Source: Gigantopelta aegis
Lineage: Eukaryota
DNA length: 64,000 nt
Assembly (NCBI RefSeq): GCF_016097555.1
Contig: NW_024532772.1
Span: 3,754 to 67,753, forward strand
Direction of reading: 5' to 3'
A program made the translations under genes and the position numbers. The notes beneath the pieces were generated by a model that saw nothing but the letters and a program-made list of their open reading frames with translations, had not been told where the DNA came from and did not search any database. Positions 30,228 to 63,800 of the stretch are shown piece after piece; the first letter of the stretch is position 1; each line of letters starts with the position of its first letter.

Positions 30228-30267
<40 letters not shown>

Positions 30268-38316: not shown

Positions 38317-41300
38317 ATGTCTGATAATCTCCGTCCACCTACTCTTGATCTACTGTGTGATGAGCTAAGGCAAGTAGTTGAATGGGATCAAGTAGCTGTA
38401 AGTCTCAAAGTATCTTATGTGGATATAAAAGTATTGAGACACAATATTCTGAATAGCCACAGCGCAAAATGCATTCTTTACAAAAATGGCTAGATCAAAC
38501 CAACACTGTACATTCATGGCATACTATAGCTGATGCAGTAGAAAAAGCAAAAATCCTGCAGTTGCTGAGAACATTAGAACAAAGTATGCTACTATTATAG
38601 ATCTAGTACCATCCACCTCACAACATGAAAAATCTAGCGATGTAAAAAATGAGCATAATCCAACTAGTTACTTTATGAATAAAGAGCAACAAGGTATTAC
38701 ACTAAATCAAAGCCACAGTGTAAGAATGTAGCGTAAATGATGACCAACATCAAGTTATTATTGAAGAGCAGCAAATCATTCAGTATCTTCAAATTCACAG
38801 CATGAAGAATCTAGTGATACGCTCAATGACAATTATACAACCAGTACTAGTGATATCATTGAACAGCAACAATTAATGGAGAGTGGAGTAAAGCTTGAAA
38901 GAAATATAGTGCAAGAAATCATTGACTTTCTTGAGAGATTTGCAGCATTAGTTTCAGAAACTCAAGCATTTTTTAGAAGAAAAAACCAAAAATTCTTTTA
39001 CCTTTTTATCGATACTTAAAGATTCTAATAGGTGAAGCATTACCAGATGAATCTGGCATCACATATGACAAACTATTTAATATGCTAGATAACCATTGGC
39101 ATTATCTCAAATATCAACTTCTTCAAAGAATAATTAAACGATTTCTTCCGACACTGAATTGCCTTATGAAGTACAAAAATATCAAGATGATATAGTAGCA
39201 TTTAAAAAGTCAACGAAAATGAGAGATCTTGTAGATAATGTGAGATCAAAAAAGAGCATATCAGGTAATGTACAAGTAGCATTGACAGTGGAGGAAGTAT
39301 GGCTAGAGGTCACATTAGAGCATTTTGAGTTTCTAGTAAAACTACTTTTTCAAGAATATGATAAGTCACTTCAAATTGTAGTTGTTCAAGGAGGTAGCTT
39401 GTATATTGCTTGGAGTCTTTCCAAAGCTTTCCTTCTTACAAAATCCAAATTTGACTACAAAGTGCTAAGGGCAATTGGAGTCATCTCACTAATAGTAGGT
39501 ACTATTGTAGTCTTTAACAATGAAGACTCACAAGATGATATGACTATTGACTCAGTCTGTTGGGAGCTATTCAATCTGGTGGTCCTCTTTCTGCTATATC
39601 TCTACTTCTTGAAGTAGGTGGTAATCCTACCTACTAACACAGTCAGGAGAAACAGTGATATCTACTTTATCTAAAATAAAAAATGATAATGGTACCACTG
39701 TGTTACATGTTGCTAGTAAATATGGTCACTCTTCAGTTGTTTCTACCTTACTTAGCAATGGGATAGATCCAAACGTAGTTATGAATAATGGTTGTACGCC
39801 TCTTATGCTAGCTAGTCAGGATGGCCATGATGATGTCATTCAACTGTTACTGAAGTCAAACGTAGCAATAAATACCCAAGGCAAAAATGGAATAACAGCA
39901 AATTATATTGCAAGTCAGAATGGTCACTTTTCTGTTGTTTCTACCTTGCTTAGCAAAGGGGCAGATCCCAACTTAGTTAACAATGATGGCTGGACACCTC
40001 TTATGGCAGCTAGTAAAAATGGTCATAATGATGTCATTGAGATACTACTTTAAAAAAAGGGTATTATGACAAATACCCAAAACAAATATGGAAGAACAGC
40101 CATTTATATCGCTACCCAGAGAGGTCACTCTTCTGTTGTCACTCTCTTACTTAACAATGGGGCAGATCCCAACATAGTGACAATGAAGGCTGGACACCTC
40201 TTATGGTAGCCAGTTTAAATGGTCAACTGATGTCTTTGAGATACTACTAGAGAAAAATATTCCAGTAAATACCCAAAACAATAAGGGAATAACAGCCATT
40301 TGTATCGCTAGTCACCATGGTCACTCTTCAGTTGTTTCTACCTTACTTAACAATGGGGCAGATCCTAATGTAGCTACAAATGATGGTTGGACACCTCTTA
40401 TGACAGCCAGTATAAATGGTCATATGATGTCATTGAGATACTACTAATAATAATGTTTAGTAAATACCCAAAACAATTATGGAAGAACAGCCATTTTATT
40501 GCTAGCCAGAGTGGTCACTCTTCTGTTGTCGCTTTCTTACTCAACAATGGGGCAGACCCTAATTTACCTGATAATGAAGGTTGGGCACCTCTTACGATAG
40601 CCAGTCAAAATGGACATGGTGATGTAATTGAGATATTACTAAGGAAGAATGTTCCAGTAACACCCAAACAAAAAGGGAATAACAGCTATTTGTATGCTAG
40701 CCACCATGGTCACTCTTCTGTTGTCTCTATGTTACTTAGCAATGGGGCAGATGCCAACCTAGCTATGACCAATGGATGGACACCTCTTATGGCAGCCAGT
40801 CAAAATGGTCATGCTGATGTTGTTGAGATACTACTTAACAAGAATGCTCTAGTCAACACCCAAAACAATTATGGAAAAACAGCCATTTATATTGCTAGCC
40901 AGAATGGTCACTCTTCTGTTATTACACCTTACTTAGAAATGGAGCAGACCTTAATTTACCTGGCAATGATGGCTGTACACCTCTTATGGTAGCCAGTCAA
41001 AGTGGTCATGCTGATGTCATTGAATACTACTGGAGAAAAATGTTTCATTAAATACCCAAACAAAGAAGGAGCAACGGCTATTTGTATGGCTAGCTACCAT
41101 GGTCACCTTCCTGTTGTCGCTATGTTAATTAGCAATGGAGCAGATGCCAAAATAGCCGATAATGATGGCTGGACACCTCTTCTGGTAGCTAGTCTAAATG
41201 GTCATGATGATGTCATTAAGATACTACTAGAAAATAATGTTCTAGTAAATACCCAAAACGAAAAAAGGATAACTGCTATTTATATTGCTAGTCAGAGTGG

Positions 41301-44300
41301 TCACTCTTCTGTTGTTTCTACCTTGCTTAGCAATGGGGTAGATCCCAGCCTAGCTACGAGTGATGGCTGGACACCTCTTATGGCAGCCAGTCAAAATGGT
41401 CATACTGATGTTATTGAGATATTACTTAATAAGAATGTTCTAGTAAACACTCAAAACAATTACGGAAGAACAGCCATTTATATTGCTAGCCAGAATGGTC
41501 ACTCTTCTGTTGTTTCTTCCTTACTCAAGAATGGGGCAGATCCTAATTTATCTGACAATGATGGCTGTACACCTCTTATGGTAGCCAGTCAAAATGCTGA
41601 TTATGATGTCATTAAGATACTACTAGAGAAGTATGTTTCACGTAAATATCCAGAACAAGGAAGGAGAAACAGCTATTTGTATTGCTAGCCACCATGGTCA
41701 CTCTTCTGTTGTTTCTACCTTACTTAGCAATGGGGCAGACCCCAACATAGCTGACAATGATGGCTGGACACCTCTTATGGTAACCAGTCTAAACAGTCAT
41801 GGTGATGTCATTAAAAAACTATTAATGAAAAATGCTACAGTAAATGCCCAAACTAAAAAGGGAATAACAGCCATTTATATTGCTAGCCAGAATGGTCACT
41901 TTTCTGTTGTTACTACCTTACTTAGAAATGGGCAGATCCCAGCCTAGCTACAAGTGATGGCTGGACACCACTTATGGCAGCCAGTCAAAATGGTCATGCT
42001 GATGTCGTTGAGAAATTACTTAAAAACAACGTTTTAGCAAATACTAAAAACAATTTTGGGAAAACAGCTATTTATATTTCTAGCCAGAGTGGTCACTCTT
42101 CTGTTGTCTTTTCCTTACTCAACAATAGTGCAGACCCTACTCTACCTGACAATGATGGCTATACACCGCTAATGGTAGCCAGTCAAATGCTCATGATGAA
42201 GTCATTAAGATACTACTAGAGAAGTATGTCCAGTAAATACCCAAAATAAGAAGGACAAACAGCCATTTATATTGCTAGCCACCATGGTCTCTCTTTTGTT
42301 GTCTCTATCTTACTTGGCTTTGGAGCAGATCCCAACATAGCTGACAATAATGGATGGACACCTCTTATGATAGCCAGTGTAAACTCTTATGGTGATGTCA
42401 TTGAGATACTTCTAGAGAATAATGTTCCAGTAAATACCCAAAACAAAAAGGGAGTAAACACCTATTGTATTGCTAGCCAGAACGGTCACTCTTCTGTTGT
42501 TTCTACCTTACTAAGAAATGGGGCAGATCCCAACTAGCTGCAAATGATGGCTGGACACCTCTTATGGCAGCCAGTCAAAATAGTCATGCTGATGTTATTG
42601 AGATATTACTTAATAAGAATGTTCTAGTAAACACCAAAAACAATTATGGAACAACAGCCATTTATATTGCTAGCCAGAATGGTTGCTCTTCTGTCGTATC
42701 CTCCTTACTTAACAATGGGGCAGACCCTAATTTACTGACAATGATGGCTGTACACCTCTTATGATAGCTATTGAAAAAGGTCATAGTGATATCATTAAAT
42801 TATTATTAAAGCACAGGGCACCGATAAATACCCAATCCAAAGATGGAGAAACTGCAATTTATTTTTTTAGCAAGACTGGTCATTCTTCTGTTGTTTCTAC
42901 CTTACTTAGCAATGGTGCAGATCCTAACTTAGCTAACAATAATGGCTGGACACCTCTTATGGCAGCCAGTAGAAATGGTCATAGTGATGTCGTTTTAAGA
43001 TACTATTAGAGAATAATGTTCTAGTAAATGCACAAACCGAAAAGGAGTAACGGCCATTTGTATTGCTAGTCACCATGGTCACTCTTCTATCATTTCTATC
43101 TTACTTAACAATGGGGCAGATCCCAGCTTAGCTGACAATGATGGATTGACATCTCTTATGGCAGCCAGTGGAAATAGTCATAGTGATGTTGTTAAGATAC
43201 TATTAGAGAATAATGTTCTAGTAAATGCACAAACCGAAAAGGAGTAACGGCCATTTGTATTGGTAGTCACCATGGTCACTCTTCTATCATTTCTATCTTA
43301 CTTAACAATGGGGCAGATCCCAGCTTAGCTGACAACGATGGCTTGACATCTCTTATGGCAGCCAGTGGAATGGTCATAGTGATGTTGTTGAGTTATTATA
43401 GAGCAGAATATTTCAGTAAATACTCAAACAAATAATGGAAGAACAGCCATTTATATTGCTAGCCAAAATGGTTACTCTTCTGTCATCTCGTTCTTACTTA
43501 GCAATGGTGCAAACCCTAATATACCTGACAATGATGGTTGTACACCCTTATGGTAGCCAGTAAAAATGGTTACATTGATGTCATTAAGATACTACTACAG
43601 AATAATGTTCTAATAAATACCCAAAATGAAGAAGGAGTAACAGCTATTTGTATTGCTCGCCATCGTGGTCACTCTTCAGTTGTTTCTATCTTACTTAACA
43701 ATGGGGCAGATCCCAACACAGCTACAAATGATGGCTGGACACCTCTTATGGCAGCCGTGTAAATGGTCATACAGATGTCATTGAAATACTACTTAATAGA
43801 AATGCTCCTAGTAAACATCCAAAACAATTATGGAAGAACAGCCATTTATGTTGCTAGCCAGAGTGGTCACTCTTCTGTTGTCTCTTCCTTACTTAACAAT
43901 GGGGCTGACCCTAATTTACCTGACAACGAAGGTTGGATACCTCTTATGATAGCCAGTCACAATGGTCATGGTGATGTCATTGACATACTACTTAATAAAA
44001 ATGTTCTAATAAATACCAAAAACAAATATGGAAGAACAGCCAATTTATATCGCTACCCAGAGTGGTCACTCTTTTGTTGTCTCTACCTTACTTAGCAATG
44101 GCGCAGATCCCAACATAGCTGACATTGAGGTTGGACACCTCTTATGGCAGCCATTGTAAATGGTCATGTGATGTGATGGAGATACTATTAAAGAGAAATG
44201 TTCCAGTAAATACCCAAACCAAAAGGGGAATACAGCCATACGTATTGCTAGTCACCATGGTCATTCTTCTGTTGTTTTCTATCTTACTTAACAATGGAGC

Positions 44301-47300
44301 AGATCCCAACCAAGCTGACAATGATGGCTGGACACCTCTTATGACAGCCAGTATAAATGGTCATGCTGATGTCATTGAGATACTACTTAATAATAATGTT
44401 TTGTAAATACCCAAAAACTATTATGGAAGAACAGCGATTTTTATTGCTAGCCAGAGTGGTCACTCTTCTGTTGTCTTTTCCTTACTCAACAATGGGGCAG
44501 ACCCTAATTTACCTGATAATGAAGGTTGGACACCTCTTATGATAGCCAGTCAAAATGGTCATGGTGATGTCATGGAGATACTGTTAGAGAGAAAATGTTC
44601 CAGTAAATACCCAAACCAAAAGAGGAATAACAGCCATATGTATTGCTAGTCACCATGGTCATTCTTCTGTTGTTCTATCTTACTTAACAATGGGGCAGAT
44701 CCCAATCTAGCTGACTATGATGGCTGGACACCTCTTATGATAGCCAGTGTAAATGGTCATGCTGATGTCGTTGAGATACTACTTAATAAGAATGTTCCAG
44801 TAAATATCCAAAACAATTATGGAAGAACAGCTATTTATATTGCTAGCCAGAATGGTTGCTTGTCTGTTGTCTCTGCTTACTCAACAATGAGGCAGACCCT
44901 AATTTACCTGACAATGAAGGATGGACACCTCTTATGAGAGCCAGTCAAAATGGTCATGATGATGTCATTGAGCTACTACTAGAGAAGACTGTTCCATTAA
45001 ATACCCAAAACAAAGAAGGAATAACAGCTGTTTGTATTGCTAGCTATCGTGGTCGCTTTTCTGTTGTCTCTAAATTACTTAGCAATGGAGCAGATCCCAA
45101 CATGGCCGACAATGATGGCTGGACAACTCTTCTGGTAGTTAGTCTAAATGGTCACGGTGATGTCATCAGGATACTACTAGAGAATAATGTTACAGTAAAT
45201 ACCCAAACCAATAAGGGAATAACGGCCATTTATATTGCCTGTCAGAGTGGTAATTCTTCTGCCATTTCTACCTTACTTCACAATGAAGCAGATCCCAACC
45301 TAGTTGACAATGATGGCTGGACACCACTTATGATAGCTAGTGTGAATGGTCATACTGATGTTGTTGATTTACTACTTAATAAGAATGTTCCAGTAAATAC
45401 CCCCAAAACAATTATGGAACAACAGCCATTTATTTGCTAGCCAGAATGGTTGTTCTTCTGTTGTATCCTCCTACTCAAAAATGGGGGCAGATCCTAATTT
45501 ACCTGACAATGATGGCAATACACCTCTTATGATAGCTATTGAAAAAGGTCATAGTGATGTCATTCAGTTGTTATTGAAGCAGAAAGTACCAATAAATACC
45601 CAATCTAAAGATGGAGAAACTGCAATTTATTTTTTTAGCAACTGGACTGGTCATTCTTCTGTTTCTGTTGTTTCTACCTTATTACTATTAGCAATGGTGA
45701 AAGATCCTAACATAGCTATGAACAATGGCTGTACACCTCTTATGATAGCTACCTCTTATGAAAAAGGTCATAGTGATGTCATTCAATTTTATTAAAGCAG
45801 AAAGTACCAATAAATACCCAATCTAAAGATGGAGAAACTGCAATTTATTTTTTTAGCAAGACTGGTCACTCTTCTGTTGTTTCTACCTTACTTAGCAATG
45901 GTGCAGATCCTAACATAGCTATGAACAATGGCTGTACACCTCTTATGATAGCTATTGAAAAAGGTCATAGTGATATCATTCAATTATTATTAAAGCATAA
46001 GGTACCAATAAATACCCAATCTAAAGATGGGAGAAACTGCAATTTATTTTTTAGCAAGACTGGGTCACTCTTCTGTTGTTTCTACCTTACTTTAACAATG
46101 GTGCAGATCCTAACATAGCTATGAACAATGGCTGTACACCTCTTATGATAGCTATTGAAAAAGGTCATAGTGATGTCATTCAATTATTATTAAAAGCATA
46201 AGGTACCAATAAATACCCAATCCAAAGATGGAGAAACTGCAATTTATTTTTTTAGCAAGACTGGTCATTCTTCTGTTGTTTCTACCTTACTTAACAATGG
46301 TGCAGATCCTAACATAGCTATGAATGATGGCTGGACACCTCTTATGGCAGCCAGTCAAAGTGGTCATAATGATGTCATTAAGTTACTACTAGAGAAGAAT
46401 GTTCTATTAAATACCCAAAACAAAGAAGGAGTAACAGCTATTTGTATCGCTAGTCACCATGGTCACTTTTTCTGTTTGTTTCTACCTTACTTAGCAATGG
46501 GGCAGATCCCAACATAGCTGACAATGATGGTTGGACACCTCTTATAGTAGCCAGTCTAAATGGTCATACTGATGTCATTGAGATACTACTAGAGAAGAAT
46601 ATTCAAGTAAATACCCAAACCAATAAGGGAATAACGGCCATTTGTATTGGTAGTCACCATGGTCACTCTTCTATCATTTCTATCTTACTTGACAATGGTG
46701 CAGATCCCAACCTAGCTGACAATGATGGTTGGACACCTCTTATGACAGCCAGTATAAATGGTCACGCTGATGTCGTTGAGATACTACTTAATAAAAATGT
46801 TGTAGTAAACATCCAAAACAATTATGGAAGAACAGCCATTTATGTTGCTAGCCAGAGTGGTCACTCTTCTGTTGTTTCTTCCTTACTTAATAATGGGGGT
46901 GACCCTAATTTACCTGACAATGATGACTGGACACCTCTTATGGCAGCCAGTGGAGGTGGTCATGGTGATGTTGTTAAATTATTACTAGAGAACAATGTTC
47001 CAATAAATACACAAAACAAAAATGGAGCTACAGCAATTTTATATTGCTTGCTTGACTGGCCACTCTTCTGTCATTACTATTTTAATAACAATGGAGCAGA
47101 TCCTAACTTAGCCAGGACTAATGGCTGGACACCTCTCATGATAGCCTGTGCCAAAGGACATGACAATGTTATAAGAGAGTTATTAATGACCCCAAATTAA
47201 TATCAATCATCAAACTCCTACTGGTACTACAGCATATATCTTTCTAGTCAATATGGATATGAGATATTGTTAGACAGCTACTGAATGGTGGTGCTAATCC

Positions 47301-47587
47301 ACTTATAAGAAACATGTCAGGCATGACACCACTAGATAGAGCTTATCAAAAAGGTCATCATAACATTGTATCACTACTTCAAGAAAACTATACGTGGTTT
47401 CCACGACGACAGTGATCAAGCATCATTAGCAGGTTCTATTGAGTCAGGCTACACAACTGGTGTACTATCAACTGATCACTCATCAGTAGTAGACTCTGAT
47501 GTTGGACAGATATCTGATCTAGAAGAAGACAATCCTCAACTCCCAATTAAACTAGCTGGTAAGGTTTATGTAATCAAGAACTTGTGA
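38317..47587 (+). CDS. Unit 7: best-preserved DD-ANK family gene. DD-like N-terminus, linker, middle region, ~75 ankyrin repeats, C-terminal tail ending ...ISDLEEDNPQLPIKLAGKVYVIKNL*. Open frames are interrupted every 200-700 bp, so it is either a young pseudogene or an intact gene broken by sequence errors
   Basis: MSDNLRPPTLDLLCDELRQVVEWDQVAVSLKVSYVDIK at 38317. 39159 ORF (152 aa; EVWLEVTLEHFEFLVKLLFQEYDKSLQIVVVQGG...LRAIGVISLIVGTIVVFNNEDSQDD). ANK ORFs of 132-228 aa at 39655, 40387, 41002 and 44856. Terminal ORF 47366-47587. Repeat consensus DGWTPLMAASQNGHxDVVEILLNKNVPVNTQNNYGRTAIYIASQNGHSSVVSTLLNNGADPNLADN. Confidence 0.5.
39650..47200 (+). other. Ankyrin-repeat array of unit 7 (~76 x 33-aa repeats)
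   Basis: 99-bp periodicity of the GHSSVVS...ADPN...DGWTPLM motifs across 7.5 kb. Confidence 0.75.
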
Positions 47588-48349
47588 GAGCCAATATCTA
47601 ATAATGTTACACTAAACTAATTTGATTTAAAATAATACATTAATAACATCTGATCACTTCACAGAGCAGACTCTGATGTTGGTCAATTGTCAAATATAAA
47701 GGAATACCATGATGATACTCTCTTCTTACACTGAACCAAGCACACTAAGACAAGAGATATAATGTAAGAAAAACAATAAAGTACTTATTTCCAGTTAATG
47801 CAATGTTAATAATGATAAGATAGAATTTCAATTGAACTTCAATAACTGATGTCTCTAATTGAAAATTTCAAAAAGCATTCTGTAAACATAATGTGTATTA
47901 ATCAATTCATTAGTTATAAAGCACATTACATTGACTGTAATAGAAACAATGATCATTGTAATACAAAGAAGTATCTAGAAGGATCTTGTAATAATAGTTT
48001 AATAATTTAAATATTTAATTATATTTCATATATTTAGGGACAAACTCACCTGACACAGTTACTGAAATATATTTTCAAAATGAACATATTCATAAACATA
48101 CTGATACTTTAATTATTAATGTTTTGTTATGTTATTGTATCTTGTTAATTAATTATTTGTATTAATTAAAATCCATATTTATGAAACTACATTGCTTGAA
48201 ATCTGAATACTAAATAACATATTATAGCGGACTTGTTTACAAATAATTATTGTTTAATTATTATAATATGATATGGTGTGTTTTACATTTTTGTATAATT
48301 ATAATAACAAAAGTTTATAATACTTCAGATGTAATTAATTAATTAATTA

Positions 48350-51010
48350 ATTAACCCATTTAATACTGGGTTGATTCATAATTTGTTGTAGCATAGCGTA
48401 CATGGATAGCTACTATATCCAGCTGATGATGTACTTCATTCCAAATTTCTAATGTTGTAGCATTAAAGATACTATCTACTACTCCTGGAAAAGAAGCACC
48501 TTCATATGAATTGACTGAACTAGGAGCAAATATAACATGTCTGTATGGAGAAAGAAAGAGAGGAATGAGATATTAAGGTTTAAATGAATGGATGGATAGA
48601 GAAAAGAATGGACAGATAGAAGGATCAACCATTGTTCTTAAGTGAAGTACATGTATATCGGAGTATTTGTTACTTACTTATAAGATGGTCGTCCTGGTAA
48701 TCCTTCTCGGTTGAAAATAAATGATTCTCTCTATATTCATTAGTTTATTGTTAAGTATTCTGACTATATTCTCACTACATACAGAGGACAAAGATATAGT
48801 TAATAACTACTGGAATATTATACTAACTTGTCTGTGTCAGCATATTTTATGAGTGTATTATGAAGATGGTAGCAGCTGTGAAAAGTCAGTTAAACAAGAG
48901 TAAAGGAACTCTATAGAACAAATAACCATTATTAATACAATAATTTATATGATCTCTTATCATTAACTAATATACTAATATAATATATATAACATGTAAG
49001 AGTTAATATGACATATTATAATATATATGTATATATAGGAGGACATCTTACCAGTTGATATATTATGATGTTGGAATTGACTACCATATGTTGTCTGTAA
49101 TCATTATATAGTTCCATTAATCTCTCTGAATAATCAATTGGATTGTAAGGAAGAATGGGGTGTGTTGATAGTGCCATGGCAACAGTTAACACACCTCTCC
49201 TAATGCTGTATATGATGTGTGAAGTCAGGATCACCAAAATGACTCATCCATAAAAATTATCATGAACAGAATGATAGACAAAATAATGGTAGCTATTCTA
49301 AATGGATTGATAAATTCAATTAAATGAATAAATACATTATTAGAATGGATGGGCATGATACCTGGTAATCTATGTCACAGCTAGTCACTCCAAGACTCTG
49401 AATAAAGAAAGTAAAGTCACTCGCAGAGCTCAAATTATTTATCCTATTAAATAAACAAATCACATGATAATCATGTGTCAATTACATATACCTTGGTTTT
49501 GAAGATTTGGAGTGGTTCTTCCACTGTTCATAGACTGTCTGGAAATCATTACAAGGACAAGCTACCTAGAGGACAAATGTCATCTTGGATAAGATTAATG
49601 TACACTAACTTGTTTTGTAGCATTGTAAATAGATTCATATAACAGTGGACTACTAGAAGCTGAAAAAGATTCCATTCCTATATTAAAAAATAAAACTATA
49701 TATCATTAAATCTCTTGAATAGTTATATAATTATAATATTATTATTATTATTATAAATGTAATCAAGTCTTTACCTTCTACAGCTACATCTACATTAAGA
49801 TAAGCCATAGCATTTGCTCCTAATAACTTCTCTACATCCTATATATAATATAAATAATATATTATATAACTATTTGTATATAATATACCTCACACTACTC
49901 TGTAGAACCAATCAAACCATATTTCTCAGCATCCCAACTACATAATACTACTGTTCTACCTGGTCTCCAACCTTTAAAATATAGAATTCTTCTTCTCTCT
50001 CTCAGTCATTCTTACCTGTGTTCCTCAGGTCACCTAACACTCGAGCTATGTCCATTATGCAGCTGTACCACTATTAGGATCAACTGCTCCAAATGTCCAT
50101 GCATCATGATGATTACCTACATAACAAGATGATCTGAGAAGAGAGAGAGAGAGAAATATAGTAAGTAGTACAACAGTCCCTATTGATCTACCTGGTTCTA
50201 CTTTTCCATAAATAACAGCAAATACATTACTAATAGTTCTTCTCTCTAATATATTATTTACTGAAGGAAAGTAAACTATTAACAAACAAAGATAAACACA
50301 CATTAGATCAGACATACTTTGTGTTACTAGTAGACTGATAGATATAGTAATTGGTAATATTTAGTTCTCCCTTCCATGACAATGGAACTTCATATGTATC
50401 TAATTGACTAAAGAGAGAAACATACAGACATTTATTATTATTATATATAGTTACTTCATAAAATGGACAGCATCTCCATAAGATATTGGTTGAACAGGTA
50501 TAGCAGGAACATCACCAGATCTGATAAAACATCTTCATAAGACCGACGATATACTTCATCTGAAAGAGAACAGAGATTATAAGGACAATGACAAACAAGG
50601 TAGTTAGCACCAACTGCTGGTATTCCAGGAGTAAGAGGATCTCCACTTGATATCATAACTGACCCTCGTTGTAACCCTCAGGAGGAAGACTAGGACCATT
50701 AGGGTAGACAGGGGGACCTCCTTTGGGAGCAACATCTGCTGGATCAGAGTATATGATTAATCCAGTACATCGAATCTTTGAGCTAAATGAGCCTGTTAAA
50801 GATATAAAGTGCTATCCTACAGACACAGACTCATTCCAAAAAGTAAAAGTATTAAATTATGAAACTTATGATACCTTATCTCCCCTGTATATCCTACCAT
50901 ATCTTGCTATACAAATATGACCAGTAATGTTTAGACTTAAATTTTTAGTAATATAATCAAAGTCTTTAAATTGTGCATAATTTACATAAACCAGAGGTCC
51001 CTAAATTAAA

Positions 51011-51063
<53 letters not shown>

Positions 51064-51630
51064 TTTAGCGCAAGATAAATAATTGCTTACTTCAGCTGAT
51101 CCAATCCTGAATAACTATTAAAAGGAGGAGGGGACATCAGTGTCATTTTCTCCTGGTGTCAGGGGAGGGTTCCTGCCTGTTTCTGCAGTGTAGAGGACAT
51201 CTTTGTCATCATTAAGAACCTTTAGTACATTGTAGTTGCTGCGATTTACATAACTCAATAATACACTATAATTTGTCATCTCTACAAGATCAAAATTATT
51301 TTGTGAGAAAGACTGATAAATGAGGTTAGCAATATCTTTATTTTGTTCCTTGCCAGCAATATGAGGTCTGGCAGTAAGTTGTCTATCAGAGAAGTATTAA
51401 TAATTATGATCAGTTTAATCTTGTAACACTTTACCTTAAAATTCTTTTTATTTATTTGAATCCAAACTTTCAGACACATAGTCTCCTATTGCTGAGACTG
51501 ACCATTAACAGTACAATAGCACCCCATGAGTTAACTGCAGGTCAGTAGACTCATTAATACTCCATCCTAGTAGGAAACCAGCCCCAAAACTGGTACAAAG
51601 TAACAATACTACACTGATAATGGCACAAAT
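48350..51630 (-). pseudogene. GCPII/NAALADase-like copy B: inverted 5'-truncated duplicate of copy C. Lacks the start codon and cytoplasmic tail, and carries frameshifts
   Basis: - strand ORFs: 49016 ([19 protein letters not shown]), 50055 ([26 protein letters not shown], then a stop caused by a missing T), 50456 ([12 protein letters not shown]...[11 protein letters not shown]). Exon GPLVYVNYAQFKDF...[18 protein letters not shown] at 50940-51010 is intact. Homology to copy C stops at 51630 after the TM-coding segment. A 1-bp deletion lies inside the TM exon. Confidence 0.75.
51013..51060. repeat. (GA)n microsatellite in a GCPII-B intron
   Basis: Read directly. Confidence 0.9.
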
Positions 51631-52350
51631 TTTACAGAGGATATACTTGGACTTTTTAGATGATTTTTTAGATGGCAATATGTGAATTCTTTTTGGATAG
51701 GGAGCAGCTCATCCGAACTATGATCATCGGCCATTATAGTATACGGACAAAAGTACTATTTATATTGCATTACATTTCAGTATAAATTTCAGAATGTTTC
51801 CGTATTCTTCCGCATACTAATCGCAGCTGATTTTATATAATAATTATATCGATTATTAGTTTGTAGTGCAATGGCCGATAAAGGTGGACTATTAGATGAT
51901 GACAGAACGAACGAGTTGGGCTCTATCAAAAAAGAGGACCATCCATTACAATCTAAAAGATCGCTTAAAAAGTCCAGACATATCTTCAGTCTAGTTTGTG
52001 CCATTATCTGTGTAGCATTGTTGCTTTGTACCAGTTTTGGGGCTGGTTTCCTACTAGGATGGAGTATTAATGAGTCTACTGAACCTGCAGTTAACTCATG
52101 GGGTGCTATTGTAACTGTTAATGGTCAGTCTCAGCCAATAGGAGACTATGTGTCTGAAAGTTTGGATTCAAATAAATAAAAGAGAATTTAAGGTAAAGTG
52201 TTACAAGATTAAACTGATCATAACTATTATTATTACTTCTCTGATAGACAACTTACTGCCAGACCTCATATTGCTGGCAAGGAACAAAATGAAGATGTTG
52301 CTAACCTCATCTATCAGTCTTTCTCACAACATTATTTTGATCTTGTAGAG
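51280..52350. repeat. Centre of the B/C palindrome. Inverted-repeat arms 51280-51630 and 52010-52350 flank a ~380 bp unique spacer that holds the copy C start codon
   Basis: Frame-shifted six-frame ORFs 51282-51479(-) and 52148-52348(+) translate to near-identical peptides ([26 protein letters not shown]...), which is the signature of an inverted duplication. Direct comparison shows about 95% identity. Confidence 0.85.
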
Positions 52351-55335
52351 ATGACAAATTATAGTGTATTATTGAGTTATGTAAATCGCAGCAACTACAA
52401 TGTACTAAAGGTTCTTAGTGATAATAAAGATGTCCTCTACACTGCAGAAACAGACAGGAACCTCCCCTGACACCAGGAGAAAATGACACTGATGTCCCTC
52501 CTCCTTTTAATAGTTACTCAGGAATTGGGATCAGCTGAAGTAACCAATTATTTATCTCATGCTAACTCTCTCTCTTCTTTCTCCTTTAGGGACCTCTGGT
52601 TTTGTAAATTATGCACAATTTGAAGATTTGATTATATTACTAAAAACTTAAGTTTAAACATTACTGGTCATATTTGTATAGCAAGATATGGTAGGATATT
52701 CAGAGGAGATAAGGTATGAGAAGTCTCATAATTTAATACTTCTAGTCTGTGAATGGGACTGTGTCTGTAGGATAGCACTTTATATATTAACAGGCTCATT
52801 TAGCTCAAAGATTGGATGTACTGGATTAATCATATACTCTGATCCAGCAGACTATGCTCCCAAGGAGGTCCCGCTGTCTACCCTAATGGTCCCTAGTCTT
52901 CCTCCTGGAGGGTTGCAACGAGGGTCGTTATGATAATAAATGGAGATCCTCTTACTCCTGGAATACCAGCAGTTGGTACTATTACCTTGTTTGTCATTGT
53001 CCTTATAATCTCGTTCTCTTTCAGATGAAGTATATCGTCGATCTTATGAAGATGTTATCAGATCTGGTGATGTTCCTGCTATACCTGTTCAACCAATATC
53101 ATATGGAGATGCTGTCCATTTTATTGAAGTAACTTATAATAATAATATAATAAATGTCTGTATGTTTCTCTCTTTAGTCAATTAGATACATTTGAAATCC
53201 CATTGTCATGGAAGGGAGAACTAAATATTACCAATTACTATATCTATCAGTCTACTAGTAACACAAAGTATGTATGTCTGATCTAATGTGTGGTTTATCT
53301 TTGTTTGTTAATAGTTTAACTTTTCTTCAAGTAAATAATATATTAGAGAGAAGAACTATTAGTAATGTATTTGCTGTTTTTATGGAAAAGGTAGAACCAG
53401 GTTAGATCAATAGGGACTGTTGTACTACTTACTATCTCTCTCTCTTTCTCTCTCTTCTTCCCTCTTTCTCTCTCTCTCACTCAGATCATCTTGTTATGTT
53501 AGGTAATCATCATGATGCATGGACATTTGGAGCAGTTTATCCTATAGTGGTACTGCTGTATTAATGACATAGCTCGAGTGTTAGGTGACCTGAGGAACAC
53601 AGGTAAGAATGAGAGAGGAGAGAGGAGAGAGAGAGAGAGAGAGAGAGAGAAGAATTCTATATTTTAAAGGTTGGAGACCAGGTAGAACAGTAGTATTATG
53701 TAGTTGGGATGCTGAGGAATATGGTTGATTGTTCTACAGAGTATGTTGAGGTATATATATACAAATAGTTATATATATATATTATTTATATTATATATAG
53801 GATGTAGAGAAGTTATTAGGAGCAAATGCTATGGCTTATCTTAATGTAGATTTAGCTGTAGAAGGTAAAGACTTGATTACATTTATATAATGATAATATT
53901 ATTATAATTATATAATTATAACAATTGATGTATTTAATGATATAATACTTTTATTTTCAATCTAGGAATGGAATCTTTTTCAGCTTCTAGTAGTCCATTG
54001 TTATATGAATCTATTTACAATGCCACAAAACAAAGTTAGTGTACATTAATCTTCTGTATTTATCCAAGATGACATTTGTCCTCTAGGTAGCTTGTCCTTG
54101 TAATGATTTCCAGACTGTCTATGAACAGTGGAAGAACCATTCCAAATCTTCAAAACCAAGGTATATGTAATTGTCACATGATTATCATGTGATTTGTTAT
54201 TTAATAGGATAAATAATTTGGGTTCTGGAAGTGACTTTACTTTCTTTATTCAAAGTGTGGGAGGTGGACCAGCTGTGATATAGATTAACAGGTACCATGT
54301 CCATCCATTTCTAATAATGTATTTGTCCATTTAATTTGAACTTATCAAGCCATTTTGTATTCATCAATCCATTTAGAATAGTTACGATTATTTTGTCTAT
54401 CATTCTGTTCATGACAATTTTTATTGGATGAGTCATTTTGGTGATCCTGACTTCACACATCATAAAGCATTAGGAGAGGTGTGGTTAACTGTTGCCATGG
54501 CACTATCAACCACACCCATTCTTCCTTACAATCCAATTGATTATTCAGAGAGATTAATGGAACTATATAATGAGTTACAGACAACATATGGTAGTCAATT
54601 ACAACATCATAATATATCACTGGTAAGATGTCCTCCTGATATATACATATATATTATAATATGTCATATTAACTCTTACATGTTATATATATATTATATT
54701 AGTATATTAGTTAATGACATAAGAGATCATATAAATTATTGTATTAATAATGTCATTTGTTCTATAGAGTTCCTTTACTCTTGTTTAACTGACTTTTCAA
54801 CAGCTGCTACCAATCTCATAATACACTCATAAAATATGCTGACACAGACAAGTAATAGTAATTCCAGTAGTTATTAACTATATCTTTGTCTCTGTATTGT
54901 AGTGAGAATATAGTTAGAATACTTAACAATAAACTAATGAATATAGAGAGATCATTTATTTTACCAGAAGGATTACCAGGACGACCATATTATAAGTAAG
55001 TAATAATACTCTATATATATGTACTTCACTAAGAAACAATGGTTGATCCTTCTATCTGTCCATTCTTTTCTCTATTCATCCATTCATTTATACCTTAATA
55101 TCTCTTTCTCTCTTTCTTTCTCCATACAGACATGTTATATTTGCTCCTAGTTCAGTCAATTCGTATGAAGGGGTCGTTCTTTTTTCCAGGAGTAGTAGAT
55201 AGTATCTTTAATGCTACACATTAGAAGATTGGAATGAAGTACATCATCAGCTGGATATAGTAGCTATCCATGTACGCTATGCTACACAAATTATGAATCA
55301 ACCCAGTATTAAATGGGTTAATTAATTAATTAAAC
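51871..55335 (+). CDS. GCPII / NAALADase-like copy C (M28 peptidase, transferrin-receptor family; type II membrane protein). Multi-exon with a start codon. Several exons carry 1-bp indels, so it may itself be a pseudogene
   Basis: Exon 1 ORF 51871-52179 gives MADKGG...cytoplasmic tail..[22 protein letters not shown] (TM)..ESTEP. Exon 2 (from about 52247) ...[19 protein letters not shown]...[14 protein letters not shown] matches GCPII HLAGTEQN...YDVLLSYPN. 52688 [22 protein letters not shown]...[10 protein letters not shown] matches GAKGVILYSDPADYFAPGV...LPGGGVQRGN. 52940- [12 protein letters not shown]|intron|[11 protein letters not shown]. 53510- [12 protein letters not shown] (zinc-ligand region, with indels). 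54428 [50 protein letters not shown]. 54890- [31 protein letters not shown]. Stop near 55333. Confidence 0.7.
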
Positions 55336-56048
55336 TAATTGAAAAAATTGTTGAATGTGTTAATTGAATTGACTTACTAATTATTACAAAATTTATAATG
55401 CTGTTTAATTTATAACTTATTATTAAATAGTTATTATTTTACACTATTAGTTGCAATTTTCCTTTTTTCCAGTTAATTGATTATTATTATTATGTTATAA
55501 TCAGGTACTTTTGATCATAAGTTATTGGAATAATTAACACTTTTAAACTAAATGTACATTTGTCTTATTATACTATTAATCAATTGAACAATTGATTTTG
55601 CCCAGCAGGAGCTCGTCCCCAAACCTACATGTCTTCATGTATGCCTGCATAGGAATGAGGATAGATATGACTATATGTCAGATAGATTGCTATTTTGCAA
55701 AGTTCAAGTTTAATGTTACCTTTTCATTATCTGTTGGATTAGATAAATATAGTAGAATACAACAAACTACTAGAAGATTCTTATCAGCTCATGAAATTGG
55801 CTTCTTCTTTCAATAGAAGAGCACAAAATATATGTGCACTAGTGATAGTAAATTAAACCCTCTAAAAATCCCTTAAATTTGTACTTATTGTAGAGTATTA
55901 TTGACTAGCTATATATTCATCTAGTTCAACAAGATAGAGGTAGTTAGTATTATTGACTATCTAGTTCAACAAGATAGATTATGGTACATCTACTATATGT
56001 TATACCTAATCACAACAAAGGTCACTTTTGTTTAGTTGTTTATCTAGT

Positions 56049-56165
56049 AGTTCTTGGTATAACTTGATTATGATGACATCAGAGTGATGTCATCATAATG
56101 ATGACCACATCCATGTAAGCCATTAAACCCTATGACACATATCATAGTACAAGTTATACCAAGAA
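56049..56165. repeat. Nested inverted repeat / hairpin (outer arms cttggtataacttg...caagttataccaag; inner near-perfect 33-bp palindrome attatgatgacatcaGAGtgatgtcatcataat)
   Basis: Read directly. Confidence 0.8.
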
Positions 56166-56849
56166 GCACTTGTGTTACAATTACTAAAAATTCAGCAGAA
56201 AGTCCATGAATCTGGTTCTGATTCCAATCATCTAAAACTATTTACACAATAAAGTATGGACAGATCTCTTGACACTTTGCTATGAAAGTGTCATGATATG
56301 ATAACGGATCTCTCTTATTATAACATAATATTTTCAATTATTGCAGATTACAAGTTTTTAAAATAAATTTTAGTACAAGTTGTAATTGATAATATGTGTC
56401 GAAAGAAAAGAACCAAAAAATTGAAAACGTTATACAAAAAATAAATTATCAGTCATAACGAGGGCCTATTAATTAATGTATACCATTGTTAGTATTATTA
56501 TTATTTTCAGTTATTTTGTAAACATGTATATGAATAAATCATACATTTTTCGAGGGAAAAAATTTCAAAATTATAATATCATAATTAATTAATTAATTAA
56601 TTATATTAATTAATTAATTAATTAACCTCTACTTTTTGATGAGGGCACTTGTTTAAGTAGAGGTTGTGCTGAAGTTGATAAGAGAACTGTTTTGAGTGGA
56701 TTGATAGCTAGACACCTAAGAAAGAGAGAGAGAGAGAGAGTCTCAACTAGTAATCCCCATAGTAGAAATATACTACATTAACTTAAAGGAATAAATTCAC
56801 TAATTTATTTATAGTTATCAAATCAACTATCTCATTACTATGTGTAATC

Positions 56850-58707
56850 CCAGGGGCATACCTGTTGTACCCGTTAACGGTGTACTATTGGGATGATTCC
56901 CTAGGAGATAATCCGCTAGGTGGAGAATATACTGAACCCATTCCATCGCCACTGTTACTGGAATAGCTCGGTAGGCATAGGGAAGCCTTGAGGTGGGGAA
57001 CCAGTTGGTGACATATCTATGGGTTTACTCATAATAGCCAAACCTGATGAGAAATACTCATTCATATGCATGTCCATATATGGTTATATGTATCTATAAA
57101 TCATTCATCCATCCATCTATCCATTAATCTTTTTATTCATCTAAACAAACTAGCATAATATGTACCTTGAAAGTGTTCGGAGAGATAATCAGGTGACCCC
57201 AAGGAGGAGGGATCAGGAATGCCTCTCACCGAAATATGGTCCTGGAAATCCCGAGGGATAAAATGGAGGAGCAGGCATGTTGGTGTCTCCATGGTAACTA
57301 TAACCTCCATAATGAAGCTAAAAATTACACAATTTTTAACATTGAATAATCATACAATTAGAATTGTGTATTTGTAAGTATGTGTATTTCTCTGCTAGGC
57401 TATTTACCTGGGGGGTGAGAAACTCATGGGACTCATTTTCCCTCGTTTTATTGCCTCCCGAGCATCATTGGTGTACTAAAGATATCTAAGTAGAAAAGAG
57501 GGGAGAGAGAGAGAACATTATTTTACACAGGAAGTTCCAATGATGTATGTGGTCAATAGACTAGTAATCAGTGGTCATTATATCAGACCACAAGTACACA
57601 CACCAAATACCATAGCAATTAGAATACAATCTAGAAATGCTTTTTATAATATAACAAACAATTGAAAAAGATTTGAAAATGAATAAGAGAATTTACAATA
57701 GGAGTATTGTTACAGTATAGACAGGTAGTGCGGCCAATACCGATAGGTAGTATGAGGATTAAAATGGAGGATAAGTTGGTGAGTAATTGAAGGCTGCAGC
57801 TGCTGATGCGTGATGGTGTAGAGAGTACAATATATATTATAAATATAATTATACTAAATGTTTTTATACTTATAGGGTGTGGGTTCTTACCATAGCTATG
57901 ACTCAAAGCAGCTGCTCTAGCCTTGTCAGCTTGTGTGCGAGAGCTTCTTTAGTTTGAGCCACTTTAACTTCAACCTGATCAAAATTTTTCTTTATTACAT
58001 TGTCCCTGTCTAAATCACTGTCATTTATATCTACTCATCAATTCTCTTTACCTTCTGTTCTTGAGATCATGAAATTGAATACTGCAGACTTTGGCAGCAG
58101 GGCCAGGTTTCTCAAAAGTCACAAACCCCAAATCCTAAAGAATAAGAATGGAAATCAGCCCCCATGATATACAATACAGATCTTAATAGTATCACAAGTT
58201 CACTATAATATCAATCTTTTTTTTATGACATACCTCTGTGTCTGTTTGGGTGTTTGTGTACATCATACATCATCTGAACTTCTTCGATCTAAAGAGAGAG
58301 AAACCCGGAGAGAGAGAAACATTGCAAGTAAGTTTTTAATGATGCTTATTAAGAAAACCATATAATTAAGCTAATTCAATAATGAGTATAATTAACATTC
58401 CTTTAATCACATACTCTGTATTATATATTAGTGATATTTACATCAAGATGAAACAATTTAAGATACAATTAAGATCAGATGATATTGTGGTCTATATTTG
58501 ATTATTTGAATACAAACAATTCACAAAATGAAACCAAAAAAGGAAATAAATAAATAAAAATATTATTGGATTGTCTTACATTGCCAAATTTGGAGAAGAA
58601 ACTCCTTCATATCATCTTCATCAGTATCAGAACTTAGACCACCTACGAAAATCCTACGAACCTATATCAGAAATAAATTTAGTCATTAAGTGTAGTAATA
58701 TGATGGT

Positions 58708-58751
<44 letters not shown>

Positions 58752-61700
58752 GGAAGGAGAGAGAGAGAGAGGAGAGAGAGAGAGAGTCATTCAGTCAGTA
58801 CACATATAATTTTATTGCAATATTTTTAAAACTATTGTTGTCATAAATATATACAAGTTTCTTTTGATGATCTGTCTGTCCTGAAGACTGTCAAAAATGT
58901 CACACTTTACTGAAGCTAGTACTTTCCCTTCCACTCAAATTACAAAATAAACAGTAAACACTTAAACAAATAAGTTAACATTTATGGAACACCCAATACA
59001 ATATAATCTTTGTATACAAACAAACCACCTACATACATGTACATTTACATACATGTACAACATTTAACTTCATTTGTGTATATATATTACAGTAGTATTG
59101 TTTTTGATTAGTTCTCAAACACATTTCCTCTAACTATCCAATATCCTCTTTGCAACCAGAACTACAGTCAAGTCACACAAAATAAACTTATACATGTAAA
59201 ATAACACATTCCATAACTCCCTAAGTTTTCATAACTGAACTCCAGCAGCTTGGAACACAGCCAAATAAGGACAATAAGGACTGTACCATATAAATAGAGT
59301 GTATTACAATGCTAACATCCAATATATAACACTGTAACTTGATATTATTATTTTTGAATTTAGTTAAGCCACGCCCAGCAAGCTACACTAGCATTTAATG
59401 ATTATTCATAGCTATAGCTTGTATCTTGTTTATTGTATTCAAAGACTGTTTGAATTTTAAACATCATTTAAAGATCAGCTCACTGATAAGAACCAGGTTA
59501 CAAGAAATAAGAATTATATTAACAATATTCATGTCAAATGTAAGAATGACCTTTCTTTACAGGAATGTGTCTACATTTACATCATCAAAATTATAAGTAT
59601 ATTTTACTTCTACATGTATAAAGGCACACACACACACATAGATATATCAAATTGATCAACTCCACTAACTACATATATCATTCTGATATCACGTCAAATA
59701 GAGTAGAATTTTCCTTTATAAGTAATCGTAATGAAAAGGTCCTTCCTTTCAAAGGTTAAAATAAATACAGGAAAGCGCTGTGGATATTAGCTTCAATAGT
59801 AAGATAATTCTTAAATCAGAGGTACTCCCAAAGAGAACCATTACTTAGAGAGAACCCTTTACTTAGAGAGAACCCAAAAGGCTGAGTATAACTGTGATAT
59901 AATAACAACTAGTTTAAACATTGGCTATAACTCTCAGTATAGTTGCCAGATAACTTGGTCACTACTATAGTAATGATATAGCATTCAAATGTCTTCAATA
60001 TGAAAACTGTCATCTCATCTAATAGTGTATTACTAATAGTAGACAATTAAGTTAAAAAGAGATAACATTTTCCTAATAGTGTCAAGTTGTCCACACTCTA
60101 AACTAATATAGTTCATAAATTGTTGCAGCCTTAAGATTGTATAGGCTCTATTGAATGTTACTAATAGTCTCAGCTTGTCATCTATCTACCAGGACACTCT
60201 GATAAAACAAACCAGCCCTCTATTCTCTTCACTCCACTACAAATTTTTTAATAGAGGAATTTAATATTGAAGAGTATGCCATCAGTTTTTTACAAACAAG
60301 TGATAAGATTGATCAAACTCATTGAAAGTTAGCTGCCCATTACTGATAATATGTTATGATAATAATATAATATAATAAGTATGTAGATTTGATATGATCT
60401 ATGGCACATTAATAGCATATAATAATGATATACTACTGTAGCTATGATACTAGGAATTAATGTAAGATGACTGCTCACATTGACATTGTATTAAAGTTAA
60501 AAAGAGACATTTTTTTACATTCAGTGCTACTGACCTGAGATACTGGTGTTGGTCTAGATCCATTTCTTTTAGGAACAGCCATTTCTTAGCAAAGTTTAGG
60601 ATCAAATCTATCAAAGGAAATACAATCAATCATAAGTTATCATACAGGTAGTTGACTCTAGTTAGATCAATAAACATAGACTAGATATCTTCTCAAATAA
60701 GGACAACAACAACAACACCACGTCATATTTCTCTTGATATTATTATCAAGCCTCAAGTTTCACTAAAGTAGATTAAATATTGACAGAGTTTGATAACTGT
60801 CATTGAATGGGAACTTGGTATGTTGTTACTAAGTGTATTGTGATAAACACAAAGTCAGTATTGATGGAGTACATGAAATACCAATGGTACTCCAATATAT
60901 AATTGTTGTTGATAAAAATTATCGACAGTACTAGCTTTAGTCTTTGATGATGTTTCATATCATGTAACAGTGTGTATGACAAAGTTATTAGACTATATTA
61001 AGTTACTGTGGTTAGTACATATTATAGGCTATCTTGAGTCATTGTGGTAAGTACTGATGTTCACTAGTCTAGAGCTTACTGATGGTAGCTATCCTAGGTC
61101 ATTGTAGTAAGTACTGATGTTCACTAGTCTAGAGCTTACTAATGGTAGCTATCCTAGGTCACTGTGGTAAGTACTGATGTTCACTAGTCTAGAGCTTACT
61201 AATAGTAGCTATCCTAGATCACTGTAGTAAGTACTGATGTTCACTAGTCTAGAGCTTACTAATGGTAGCTATCCTAGATCACTGTGGTAAGTACTGATAT
61301 TCACTAGTCTAGAGCTTACTAATGGTAGCTATCCTACTGTTGTTCACTAGTCTAGAGCTTACTAATGATAGCTGTTATTGGATAGAGTTTATTGATGATT
61401 ATAAAGCAGTAATGGTCACAATTGATAAAGTATACTTCTCAGTTTTTAAGTAATCCTCCAAACCCTTTATAAAAACTATCGCAATTATCAAATTGTAAAC
61501 TAATAGAAGCCAAGTTAACTAACAAGACCATTAACAATATACACATATCGCTACTACTTTGTACGCATATTTTATACATGACTTGTGTACATTTGAATGG
61601 ACACATTTAAATAACTTTCAATATAGTATAATGGTCAAATTGAGTTATCAAGATTATATGCTCATCACCAAACATACACTAAATGACCACAATCCAGCAC

Positions 61701-63311: not shown

Positions 63312-63800
63312 GAACCGGCATGTTGAGCAATTATATCTGAAATTATAGTTGTAGTGAGAAGACTTTCAGGGGCAGTGACAGGTTGTCTAAGTTCGTTGTT
63401 ATTAGTGACAGTGTTATAGCGTTTTTTTCTAGTGTTTTTTGTCCAGTAGACAGGTGAAATAAATTTGCTTTTTGTAGGGATAGTGGACGGGAGGTAAGTG
63501 AGACTAATACAAATAGTTGTGGAAGTGAGTTTGACGTGGAAGAGTGTTAAAAACTGCAGCGACGCAACTTGCACTACAATCTAAAGCTAAGAAAAGACGT
63601 AGAGAGAGACGGACGATTGCACTAAACTTCAGACTAAAGCGAAGGACACTACGACAGCACAGCACACACAGCTAAAGAACACTGCACTAACAACACACCA
63701 ACTAACTGCAGAACCCTGGCCTGTGAATGGCTGTTCTAAACGTAGTTGTGGGAGTATTAAATGCCAGCAGTAAGCGGAAATTGAGCGTGGGAGGTAGGAT
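63312..63800 (-). promoter_or_regulatory. GC-richer 5' region (putative promoter / 5'UTR) of the RNA-binding protein gene
   Basis: The local rise in G+C and CpG (gcgacgcaacttgcac...agacggacgattgcac...gcgaaggacactacgacagc) contrasts with an AT-rich background and sits immediately upstream of the inferred ATG at 63311-63309. No TATA box was verified. Confidence 0.4.

Follow-up and report, generated by a model that had tools for sequence, protein, structure and literature searches.

The 64,000-nt stretch of the Gigantopelta aegis genome analysed here (contig NW_024532772.1, hereafter the window; all coordinates are positions within it) carries, at the end of a series of ankyrin-repeat genes, two genes related to GCPII that stand head to head on opposite strands and together form an inverted repeat of ~7 kb. 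The left arm, copy B, is a full-length 17-exon GCPII-like gene at 48339–51734 on the minus strand, and the right arm, copy C, is a full-length 17-exon gene of the same kind at 51871–55333 on the plus strand; both were delimited by self-BLAST, spliced alignment, exon mapping and matches to PDB structures. In a BLASTN self-comparison, 48339–51728 (-) was paired with 55333–51895 (+) as one inverted match of 3521 columns at 89.6% identity, gaps included, with 152 mismatches and 83 gap openings, and a repeat search resolved the region at 48.3–55.3 kb into 35 inverted blocks in collinear order, each 87–100% identical. The inverted repeat is far above chance level, and the two comparisons bear out the first-pass annotation, made from the sequence, which had placed a repeat of this size at these positions.

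A global MAFFT alignment of arm B with arm C, running from the start codon to the outer edge, contains 3105 matching and 218 mismatching columns; a further 213 columns are gaps, which arise from 60 events. Counting substitutions only, the arms are 94.2% identical outside the inner 130 nt, close to the ~95% initially given; once indels are counted, however, identity is 88–90%. Both outer edges are sharp. Around 48339 and 55333 it takes only a few bases for identity to reach background level, and a sensitive local alignment detected no residual homology beyond these points (z = -0.2 to 2.1). On the B side the arm homology stops inside a self-complementary (TTAA)n run at 48334–48355 that holds the stop codon, and on the C side it stops 8 nt past the stop codon, which lies in a (TTAA)4 run at 55317–55333. 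BLAST found no other copy of the downstream flank of C (55334–58000) within the window. Intronic GA/TC microsatellites follow the same order in both arms, as had been noticed, albeit at unequal lengths: a run of 23 units in B (51016–51061) has a counterpart of ~5 units in C (~52565–52575).

Gene models were obtained with a purpose-written frameshift-aware spliced aligner, run on each copy with NAALADL1 of Amphimedon queenslandica (P0001) as the query, which scored 1782 on B and 1820 on C. The exon-by-exon collinearity of the arms proposed earlier is confirmed by 17 exons in each, with GT..AG at 16 of 16 introns in both, meaning that all 32 of the 32 splice sites across the pair are intact. Copy B runs on the minus strand from an ATG at 51734–51732 to a stop codon at 48349–48347, with exons 1–6 at 51734–51435, 51382–51091, 51000–50875, 50792–50611, 50559–50455 and 50407–50318, exons 7–12 at 50275–50192, 50133–50016, 49971–49889, 49838–49775, 49677–49610 and 49561–49492, and exons 13–17 at 49443–49365, 49297–49052, 48908–48828, 48774–48678 and 48540–48347. 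Copy C runs on the plus strand from an ATG at 51871 to a TAA at 55323–55325, with exons 1–6 at 51871–52192, 52248–52539, 52590–52713, 52794–52975, 53025–53128 and 53178–53267, exons 7–12 at 53315–53400, 53485–53602, 53670–53750, 53801–53864, 53966–54034 and 54091–54160, and exons 13–17 at 54208–54288, 54377–54622, 54770–54851, 54903–54995 and 55130–55325.

Against GCPII and GCPIII structures in PDB, copy B gave E = 1e-140 to 1e-142 and copy C E = 1e-139, and a hand-stitched translation matched human GCPII over its full length with E = 1e-124. A frame-corrected B/C consensus gave Pfam matches to PA (3e-09), Peptidase_M28 (7e-20) and TFR_dimer (4e-29), arranged in the domain order of the M28B family: a cytoplasmic tail, a single transmembrane anchor (a hydrophobic segment), PA, Peptidase_M28 and TFR_dimer. 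With matches to human GCPII at E = 1e-124 to 1e-140 and all three domains present, the initial description of two head-to-head inverted GCPII/NAALADase-like genes stands, and the assignment of B and C to the M28B family (GCPII/NAALADase/NAALADL1/transferrin receptor), as predicted type II membrane zinc peptidase genes, is solid. The closest protein among 7751 database relatives was Amphimedon queenslandica NAALADL1, at 55% identity, followed by proteins of other sponges (Ephydatia, Geodia, Halisarca), a ranking that by itself would point to a demosponge as the probable source of the window; no closer relative was found in metagenome contigs, where the best reached 53% over fragments.

The residues that we take to recognise the substrate in GCPII, namely Lys699 and Asn257 in the S1' pocket for glutamate and the arginine patch Arg534/Arg536 in S1, were placed on the alignment. 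Serine occupies both the Lys699 position (SSVNSYEG) and the Asn257 position (LQRGSVM), and the SGRARY segment that holds Arg534/Arg536 is matched by VTSCDIDY, without arginine. Amphimedon NAALADL1 shares the Ser at the position of Asn257, and its Arg534/Arg536 segment is likewise free of arginine. Assignment as a GCPII in the strict sense, hydrolysing N-acetylaspartylglutamate or folyl-gamma-glutamate, is not supported, as the glutamate-recognising residues are absent, and the label "GCPII-like" is justified at the family level only.

The arms differ most at their inner ends. Copy B reads ATGGCCGAT at 51734–51726 (-), encoding Met-Ala-Asp, the same three first codons as in C at 51871, and continues into a recognisable homologous cytoplasmic tail; by alignment, the start codon and tail of B (MADDHSSDELLPIQKE..SKKSSKKSKYIL) occupy 51626–51734 (-), and those of C 51871–51999 (+). 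Compared to C, this part of B has lost 18 nt in a deletion and is frameshifted once; the adjoining transmembrane segment hardly differs between the two. Therefore, it was wrong to assign the start codon and the tail to C only. Nor is B a 5'-truncated duplicate, as none of its 17 exons is missing and it has an ATG, a tail and a transmembrane segment; truncation applies to another copy, A, a 5'-truncated GCPII-like pseudogene at 28538–30720 (-) that covers residues ~373–783 with 12 frameshifts, as delimited by self-BLAST and spliced alignment.

In the inner segments, 31 of 110 aligned positions mismatch (28%), compared to 187 of 3213 (5.8%) elsewhere in the arms (Fisher P = 6e-13); their homology still stands out against shuffles in local alignment (z = 16). 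Positions 51630 and 52010, at which the arms had been said to end, mark a step in identity and not the limit of homology: the high-identity part does stop near 51625 and 52000, but homology at ~70% runs onward to both ATGs. The step does not stem from relaxed constraint, because the introns differ by just 8.2%. It may reflect an older pair with overwritten gene bodies, fast or positively selected change in the tail, or a patch from a third paralogue.

At the end of exon 1 (52171–52192 in C, 51456–51435 in B), both copies are without the same nucleotide in AATAAA[A]TAAAAG, as judged against the frame needed by exon 2 and against the proteins of Amphimedon and human. The gap is either an ancestral frameshift inherited by both copies or a systematic error caused by the sequence context. 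In C, a weak alternative donor, GT|GTCTGA at ~52151, would keep the frame with the loss of 15 conserved residues.

Between the two ATGs lies a unique, asymmetric spacer of 136 bp (51735–51870), which is a putative divergent promoter with the 5' untranslated regions of both genes. Its two halves show no reverse-complement similarity (z = 1.0), BLAST returned nothing but the spacer itself within the window, and TATA-like strings are present at 51759, 51781 and 51832. The spacer holds 5 CpG (observed/expected 1.99), compared to a mean of 0.83 for stretches of 136 nt across the window, of which just 1% contain as many. Together with both 5' coding ends it makes up a cluster of 10 CpG in ~200 bp (51714–51912), the densest near the arms and one of seven found by a CpG scan of the window (17641, 31667–31938, 37575, 51714–51912, 52919, 56872 and 63262–63903). 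The overall CpG observed/expected ratio is 0.22 (3001–64000), low enough to suggest that CpG is heavily methylated in the germline. CpG depletion is a feature of sponge genomes, and in Amphimedon 81% of CpG is methylated (PMC7385117). CpG frequency rises markedly at Amphimedon promoters; head-to-head genes make up 45% of the gene set in this species, and the median distance between genes is 587 bp (PMC4773876). Bidirectional pairs are defined in the same work by divergent start sites <1 kb apart and transcription both ways (PMC4773876), and the 136 bp between the ATGs of B and C fall well within this distance. From its CpG composition and these published data on sponge promoters and methylation, we infer that B and C share, or shared until recently, this spacer as an unmethylated divergent promoter.

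B and C differ by 5.8% in exons and 8.2% in introns, with 46 transitions and 39 transversions in the in-register codons, and the indels between the arms reach several tens of nucleotides. Over the 648 B/C codon pairs in register, synonymous divergence (dS) is 0.077 and non-synonymous divergence (dN) 0.037, a ratio (omega) of 0.48 that lies below 1 with P = 0.0025. A three-way comparison with copy A was limited to the 3' half of the gene, the part that A covers. Private substitutions there number 82 in A, 53 in B and 69 in C (52, 49 and 64, respectively, without the degenerate first 200 columns of A), and the distances B–C, A–B and A–C are about equal, A lying 20 kb away in direct orientation. 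Site patterns and amino-acid states polarised with Amphimedon as the outgroup both give a star for the three copies, the shared-derived states numbering 4 for AB, 4 for BC and 2 for AC.

In the 3' half, then, B and C resemble A as much as they resemble each other, and nothing there points to arm-to-arm conversion. The idea that the palindrome acts as a hotspot for gene conversion thus found no support, the arms differing from each other, over the part shared with copy A, as much as from that copy. Divergence is fairly even along the arms, and long or recent identical tracts are absent. A run of 13 consecutive B-private sites was seen near C 54860–55050; such runs of lineage-private differences show some mosaic exchange or local damage, and not arm-to-arm homogenisation. 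A palindrome of the sex-chromosome type, maintained by gene conversion, can be rejected on the divergence of its exons and introns (5.8%/8.2%) and on the near-equal B–C, A–B and A–C distances in the 3' half.

The reading frames of all three copies are heavily broken as assembled. Frameshifts number 16–17 in C, 16 in B and 12 in A, and are private to a single copy except for the one nucleotide missing in both B and C; the coding sequence of C as assembled is 2300 nt long, which is not a multiple of 3. Single-nucleotide indels occur at a density of 1.0% in exons and 1.4% in introns, mostly in runs of 1–2 nt and never in long runs, resembling neither classic slippage nor classic nanopore error closely. 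In the four largest of the six neighbouring ankyrin-repeat arrays, compared with the consensus of their units, the density of frameshifts is 4–8 per kb in the largest and 11–19 per kb in the three others, and in-frame stops are few.

The zinc ligands of the family, which we take to be His377, Asp387, Glu425, Asp453 and His553, and the general base, presumably Glu424 (human GCPII numbering), were located on the alignments. All six residues are present in the A/B/C consensus, and the ancestral gene would therefore have qualified as a catalytic-type M28B peptidase; copy A keeps Asp387 and Glu425 but is truncated. Each of B and C, as assembled, fails at one zinc ligand by a single substitution: B has Lys (AAA) for Glu (GAA in A and C) at Glu425, turning WDAEEYG into WDAEKYG (49922–49924, -), and C has Tyr (TAT) for Asp (GAT in A and B) at the zinc-bridging Asp387, turning GAVDPNSG into GAVYP.SG (53538–53540, +). 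Among 90 homologues, 97 alignment columns are conserved to at least 95%; B departs from them at 10 and C at 9, with five departures in common, compared to 0–3 in real proteins. Lineage-specific omega in the 3' half is 0.86 for A, 1.05 for B and 0.40 for C, and the difference between B and C is not significant (Fisher P = 0.15).

Two candidate stop codons were set aside. An in-frame TAG that the spliced alignment places in B (49895–49897, -; STE*CE, vs STEYVE in A and C) is equally readable as two close 1-nt indels and cannot be taken as clean nonsense, and a stop in exon 13 of C (TAC to TAA, 54284–54286) was left uncounted because a GT at 54275 gives an in-frame alternative donor.

Two further stretches of the window bear on the quality of the assembly. 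At 1692–2699 there is a 1008-nt poly-C tract with ~5% scattered A/G/T that yields spurious open reading frames of 270–360 aa on both strands and looks artefactual, and at 8278–8292 a G15 run, likely a technical artefact, interrupts an ankyrin repeat at a point that is ordinary coding sequence in the consensus of the units.

With moderate confidence, and judging from the sequence alone, we favour the reading that B and C are a genuine inverted whole-gene duplication of a 17-exon M28B gene, the arms of which have drifted apart and both copies of which are decaying or recently decayed. It is quite likely that at least B is non-functional; for loss of function in both copies we lean only slightly towards the affirmative. 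Several observations weigh against this reading. Frameshifts stand to stops as 16–17 to 0–1 in the GCPII-like copies and as 7–25 to 1 in the ankyrin arrays, where these are not stop-free altogether, an excess far above what is usual for decaying pseudogenes. A nonsense-deficit test, with 3.5 expected and 1 observed (P = 0.13), did not separate real from technical frameshifts. Given the poly-C and G15 artefacts, many of the frameshifts may therefore be technical, and C, with its omega of 0.40, is possibly intact. Divergence of ~28% over the first 130 coding nucleotides, compared to 8% in introns, is not fitted by one simple duplication. Finally, both the activity of the central promoter and the template switch proposed below as the source of the inversion are inferred.

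The step at the 5' ends would be accounted for by a different history, one that rivals the favoured account of how the structure arose and not of what it is. B and C could be an old head-to-head pair, the bodies of which, between the transmembrane region and a point 8 nt beyond the stop codon, were later homogenised, one copy being overwritten by the other in a long gene-conversion or template-switch event ~8% of neutral divergence ago; we hold this to be possible, though doubtful. It agrees with the abruptness of the change from 28% to 5.8% divergence at C ~52000 / B ~51625 (P = 6e-13) while introns differ by 8.2%, with a greater amount of synonymous change in the tail (~5 in ~26 synonymous sites, by hand count) and with the lack of leftover homology in the spacer or outer flanks, and the 13 B-private differences in a row would represent mosaic exchange among copies. 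However, a divergence like that of the tails normally suppresses conversion, the arms are fairly evenly diverged along 3.3 kb without recent identical tracts, and B and C are no closer than A and B or A and C. The same step would also result from fast or positively selected evolution of the tail, or from a third-paralogue patch.

The broken frames admit another explanation, according to which B and C, or at least C, are functional head-to-head paralogues co-expressed from the 136-bp promoter, their frames having been disrupted by assembly indels. That frameshifts vastly exceed stops in every coding repeat of the window, that 1-nt indels are similarly dense in exons (1.0%) and introns (1.4%), and that the poly-C and G15 tracts betray an imperfect assembly all speak for it, as do the 32 intact splice sites, the omega of 0.48 overall and 0.40 on the C lineage, the CpG-rich centre, which suggests an unmethylated, active promoter, and the nucleotide missing from both B and C at AATAAA[A]TAAAAG, as would be produced by a systematic error. 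Nevertheless, the changes at zinc ligands (Asp387Tyr in C, Glu425Lys in B) are substitutions and not indels, Gly-to-Ser/Ala changes in the conserved LGSGSDF motif are common to B and A, and omega is ~1 on the B lineage. The four-fold spread in the density of ankyrin frameshifts (4–19 per kb) is unlike uniform technical noise, and copy A and the relics described below prove that this gene has truly decayed in the region. On balance, we consider a functional pair rather unlikely.

An assembly artefact, either a fold-back chimeric read or an inverted mis-join of paralogues or haplotypes from elsewhere, is very unlikely from the sequence, despite the clear technical artefacts in the window and the highly repetitive nature of the region. 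A fold-back read predicts arms that differ by random error and meet at an exact axis. Instead, 218 substitutions separate the arms, biased towards transitions and with a synonymous excess; the introns are more diverged than the exons, the microsatellites are unequal and the indels extend to several tens of nucleotides, and the centre is a unique asymmetric spacer of 136 bp, on either side of which the arms are most diverged. The divergence pattern and the unique spacer are thus at odds with the identical arms, exact axis and missing spacer of a fold-back product. A repeat-induced mis-join, for its part, would fall in shared sequence and create a chimeric gene, not two complete genes meeting at unique DNA.

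It is highly improbable that the decaying inverted pair has been kept as a hairpin-RNA locus. In such a locus, transcripts reading through from the upstream plus-strand ankyrin gene, or entering the opposite arm from the central CpG-rich promoter, would form a ~3.4-kb imperfect double-stranded RNA, and endogenous small interfering RNAs (endo-siRNAs) processed from it could regulate functional M28B paralogues elsewhere in the genome. In a milder variant, the identity step at the 5' ends may mark past concerted evolution of the palindrome.

The surroundings of the pair are shaped by repeated duplication. B and C do lie at the end of a repeated series, as their earlier placement at the distal end of a tandem gene array implied, but the unit of this series is an ankyrin gene on the plus strand followed by a GCPII-like gene on the minus strand, and most units have kept no more of the GCPII-like gene than one half or a 300-bp relic. 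Six ankyrin arrays, all on the plus strand and built of 198-nt (66-aa) units, are located at 7500–8720, 13820–15120, 18381–20660, 23806–27320, 33525–35620 and 39722–47146; each unit encodes two ankyrin repeats, and there are up to 37.5 units per array. The last of these, with 37.5 copies by tandem repeat and domain search, belongs to the gene next to B, which converges on the 3' end of B, and the same type of gene precedes copy A and both relics. No Pfam match was obtained for the N-terminal exons of the ankyrin genes (e.g. 16745–17925, 32438–33293 and 38765–39016), and a death domain at the start of these genes was a guess without Pfam support.

Copy A is part of a direct repeat, 26162–30720 vs 46001–50409, that is 88.7% identical and spans the tail of the ankyrin gene and the 3' half of the peptidase gene; copy A has no related sequence upstream of it. 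The relics, both detected by self-BLAST, lie at 9502–9807 (-), comprising one exon (residues 692–721) and the adjacent intron at 91–92% identity to C, and at 15598–15849 (-), comprising the same segment at 92–93% identity to C. Each ~300-bp relic is found just downstream of an ankyrin array; the relics show that the ankyrin and peptidase unit has been duplicated several times, with the peptidase part later deleted.

An A44 run at 9199–9242, between the first ankyrin array and the first relic, could be a retroposon tail or an artefact. Tandem repeats of non-coding appearance are located at 11622–12418 (67 nt, ~11 copies), 31649–31859 (55–56 nt, 3–4 copies, CpG-rich) and 61038–61336 (60 nt, 5 copies, 95% identical), and tRNA and Rfam scans of the entire window gave no matches.

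For the favoured inverted duplication, we suggest an origin in a burst of segmental duplication of a unit in which an ankyrin-repeat gene and a GCPII-like gene converge, the same burst giving rise to the half copy A and the two 300-bp relics. The inversion itself may have been produced by a microhomology-mediated replication template switch at the self-complementary (TTAA)n edge, a mechanism that fits the location of the outer edge inside this microhomology. Since then, B and C would have diverged by ~6% in exons and ~8% at intronic and synonymous sites, with the 136-bp spacer serving, or having served, as their common divergent promoter. Both copies would by now be decaying or recently decayed, part of their indel load possibly being assembly noise.

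The high-identity arms are separated by ~375 bp, to which the spacer and the two 5' coding ends, ~28% diverged, contribute. As work on inverted repeats in yeast would suggest, this effective spacer and the 6–10% divergence between the arms should make the structure fairly stable and much less fragile than a perfect palindrome.

The B/C pair is a real but ordinary inverted segmental duplication. Its significance beyond annotation is small, and the region is not translatable as assembled; what changes are the gene models, which now comprise a head-to-head pair of full-length copies, a half copy and two relics within a duplication series of ankyrin genes. The window also carries a warning, in that frameshift counts within it are not evidence of pseudogenes without read-level checks. 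Should the copies prove intact after error correction, they would be paralogues with a common, CpG-island-like divergent promoter of 136 bp in CpG-depleted surroundings; should the hairpin-RNA reading be true, they would be an example of regulation by pseudogene-derived RNA interference.

Several known systems resemble the pair in part. Hairpin-RNA loci of Drosophila and pseudogene hairpins of mouse oocytes produce endo-siRNAs from inverted pseudogene duplicates. B and C are similarly inverted and probably decaying copies, and a read-through transcript would fold as a long hairpin; a difference is that the arms are only ~90% complementary. Human FOLH1 (PSMA) and FOLH1B/PSMAL are megabases apart on chromosome 11, the duplicate being without the 5' exons. 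They are alike in being a duplication within the GCPII family that includes a degenerate or truncated copy, whereas B and C abut head to head and are both full length, the truncated copy here being the third one, A.

Head-to-head gene pairs with bidirectional promoters in the compact genome of Amphimedon queenslandica (Fernandez-Valverde & Degnan 2016, PMC4773876) share with B and C the divergent arrangement, a very short interval and raised CpG at the presumed starts; unlike them, B and C are paralogues that form a 7-kb inverted repeat, with frames broken as assembled. In the demosponge Ephydatia muelleri (GCA_049114765.1), GCPII-like genes are present at 10001–14821 (+) and 20183–23380 (-) of locus L001, again two inverted M28B paralogues within a few kb. 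That pair, unlike B and C, is convergent, ~5.4 kb apart with a gene between, and annotated as intact (763 and 783 aa). A further GCPII-like gene of 813 aa, 45% identical to the query, at 10001–12442 of locus L002 on a 108-kb contig of an ENA metagenome assembly, is intronless, compared to the 17 exons here.

Mammalian sex-chromosome palindromes, in the 2003 work of Skaletsky and Rozen, reportedly keep their arms >99.9% identical through arm-to-arm gene conversion. Like them, the B/C structure is a gene-bearing inverted repeat with a short unique spacer; in contrast, its arms are 3.4 kb long, 6–8% diverged (10–12% with indels) and no closer to each other than to a third copy in direct orientation. 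Next to those palindromes, it provides a small, clean case of an inverted gene duplication with arms that have drifted apart and have not been homogenised.

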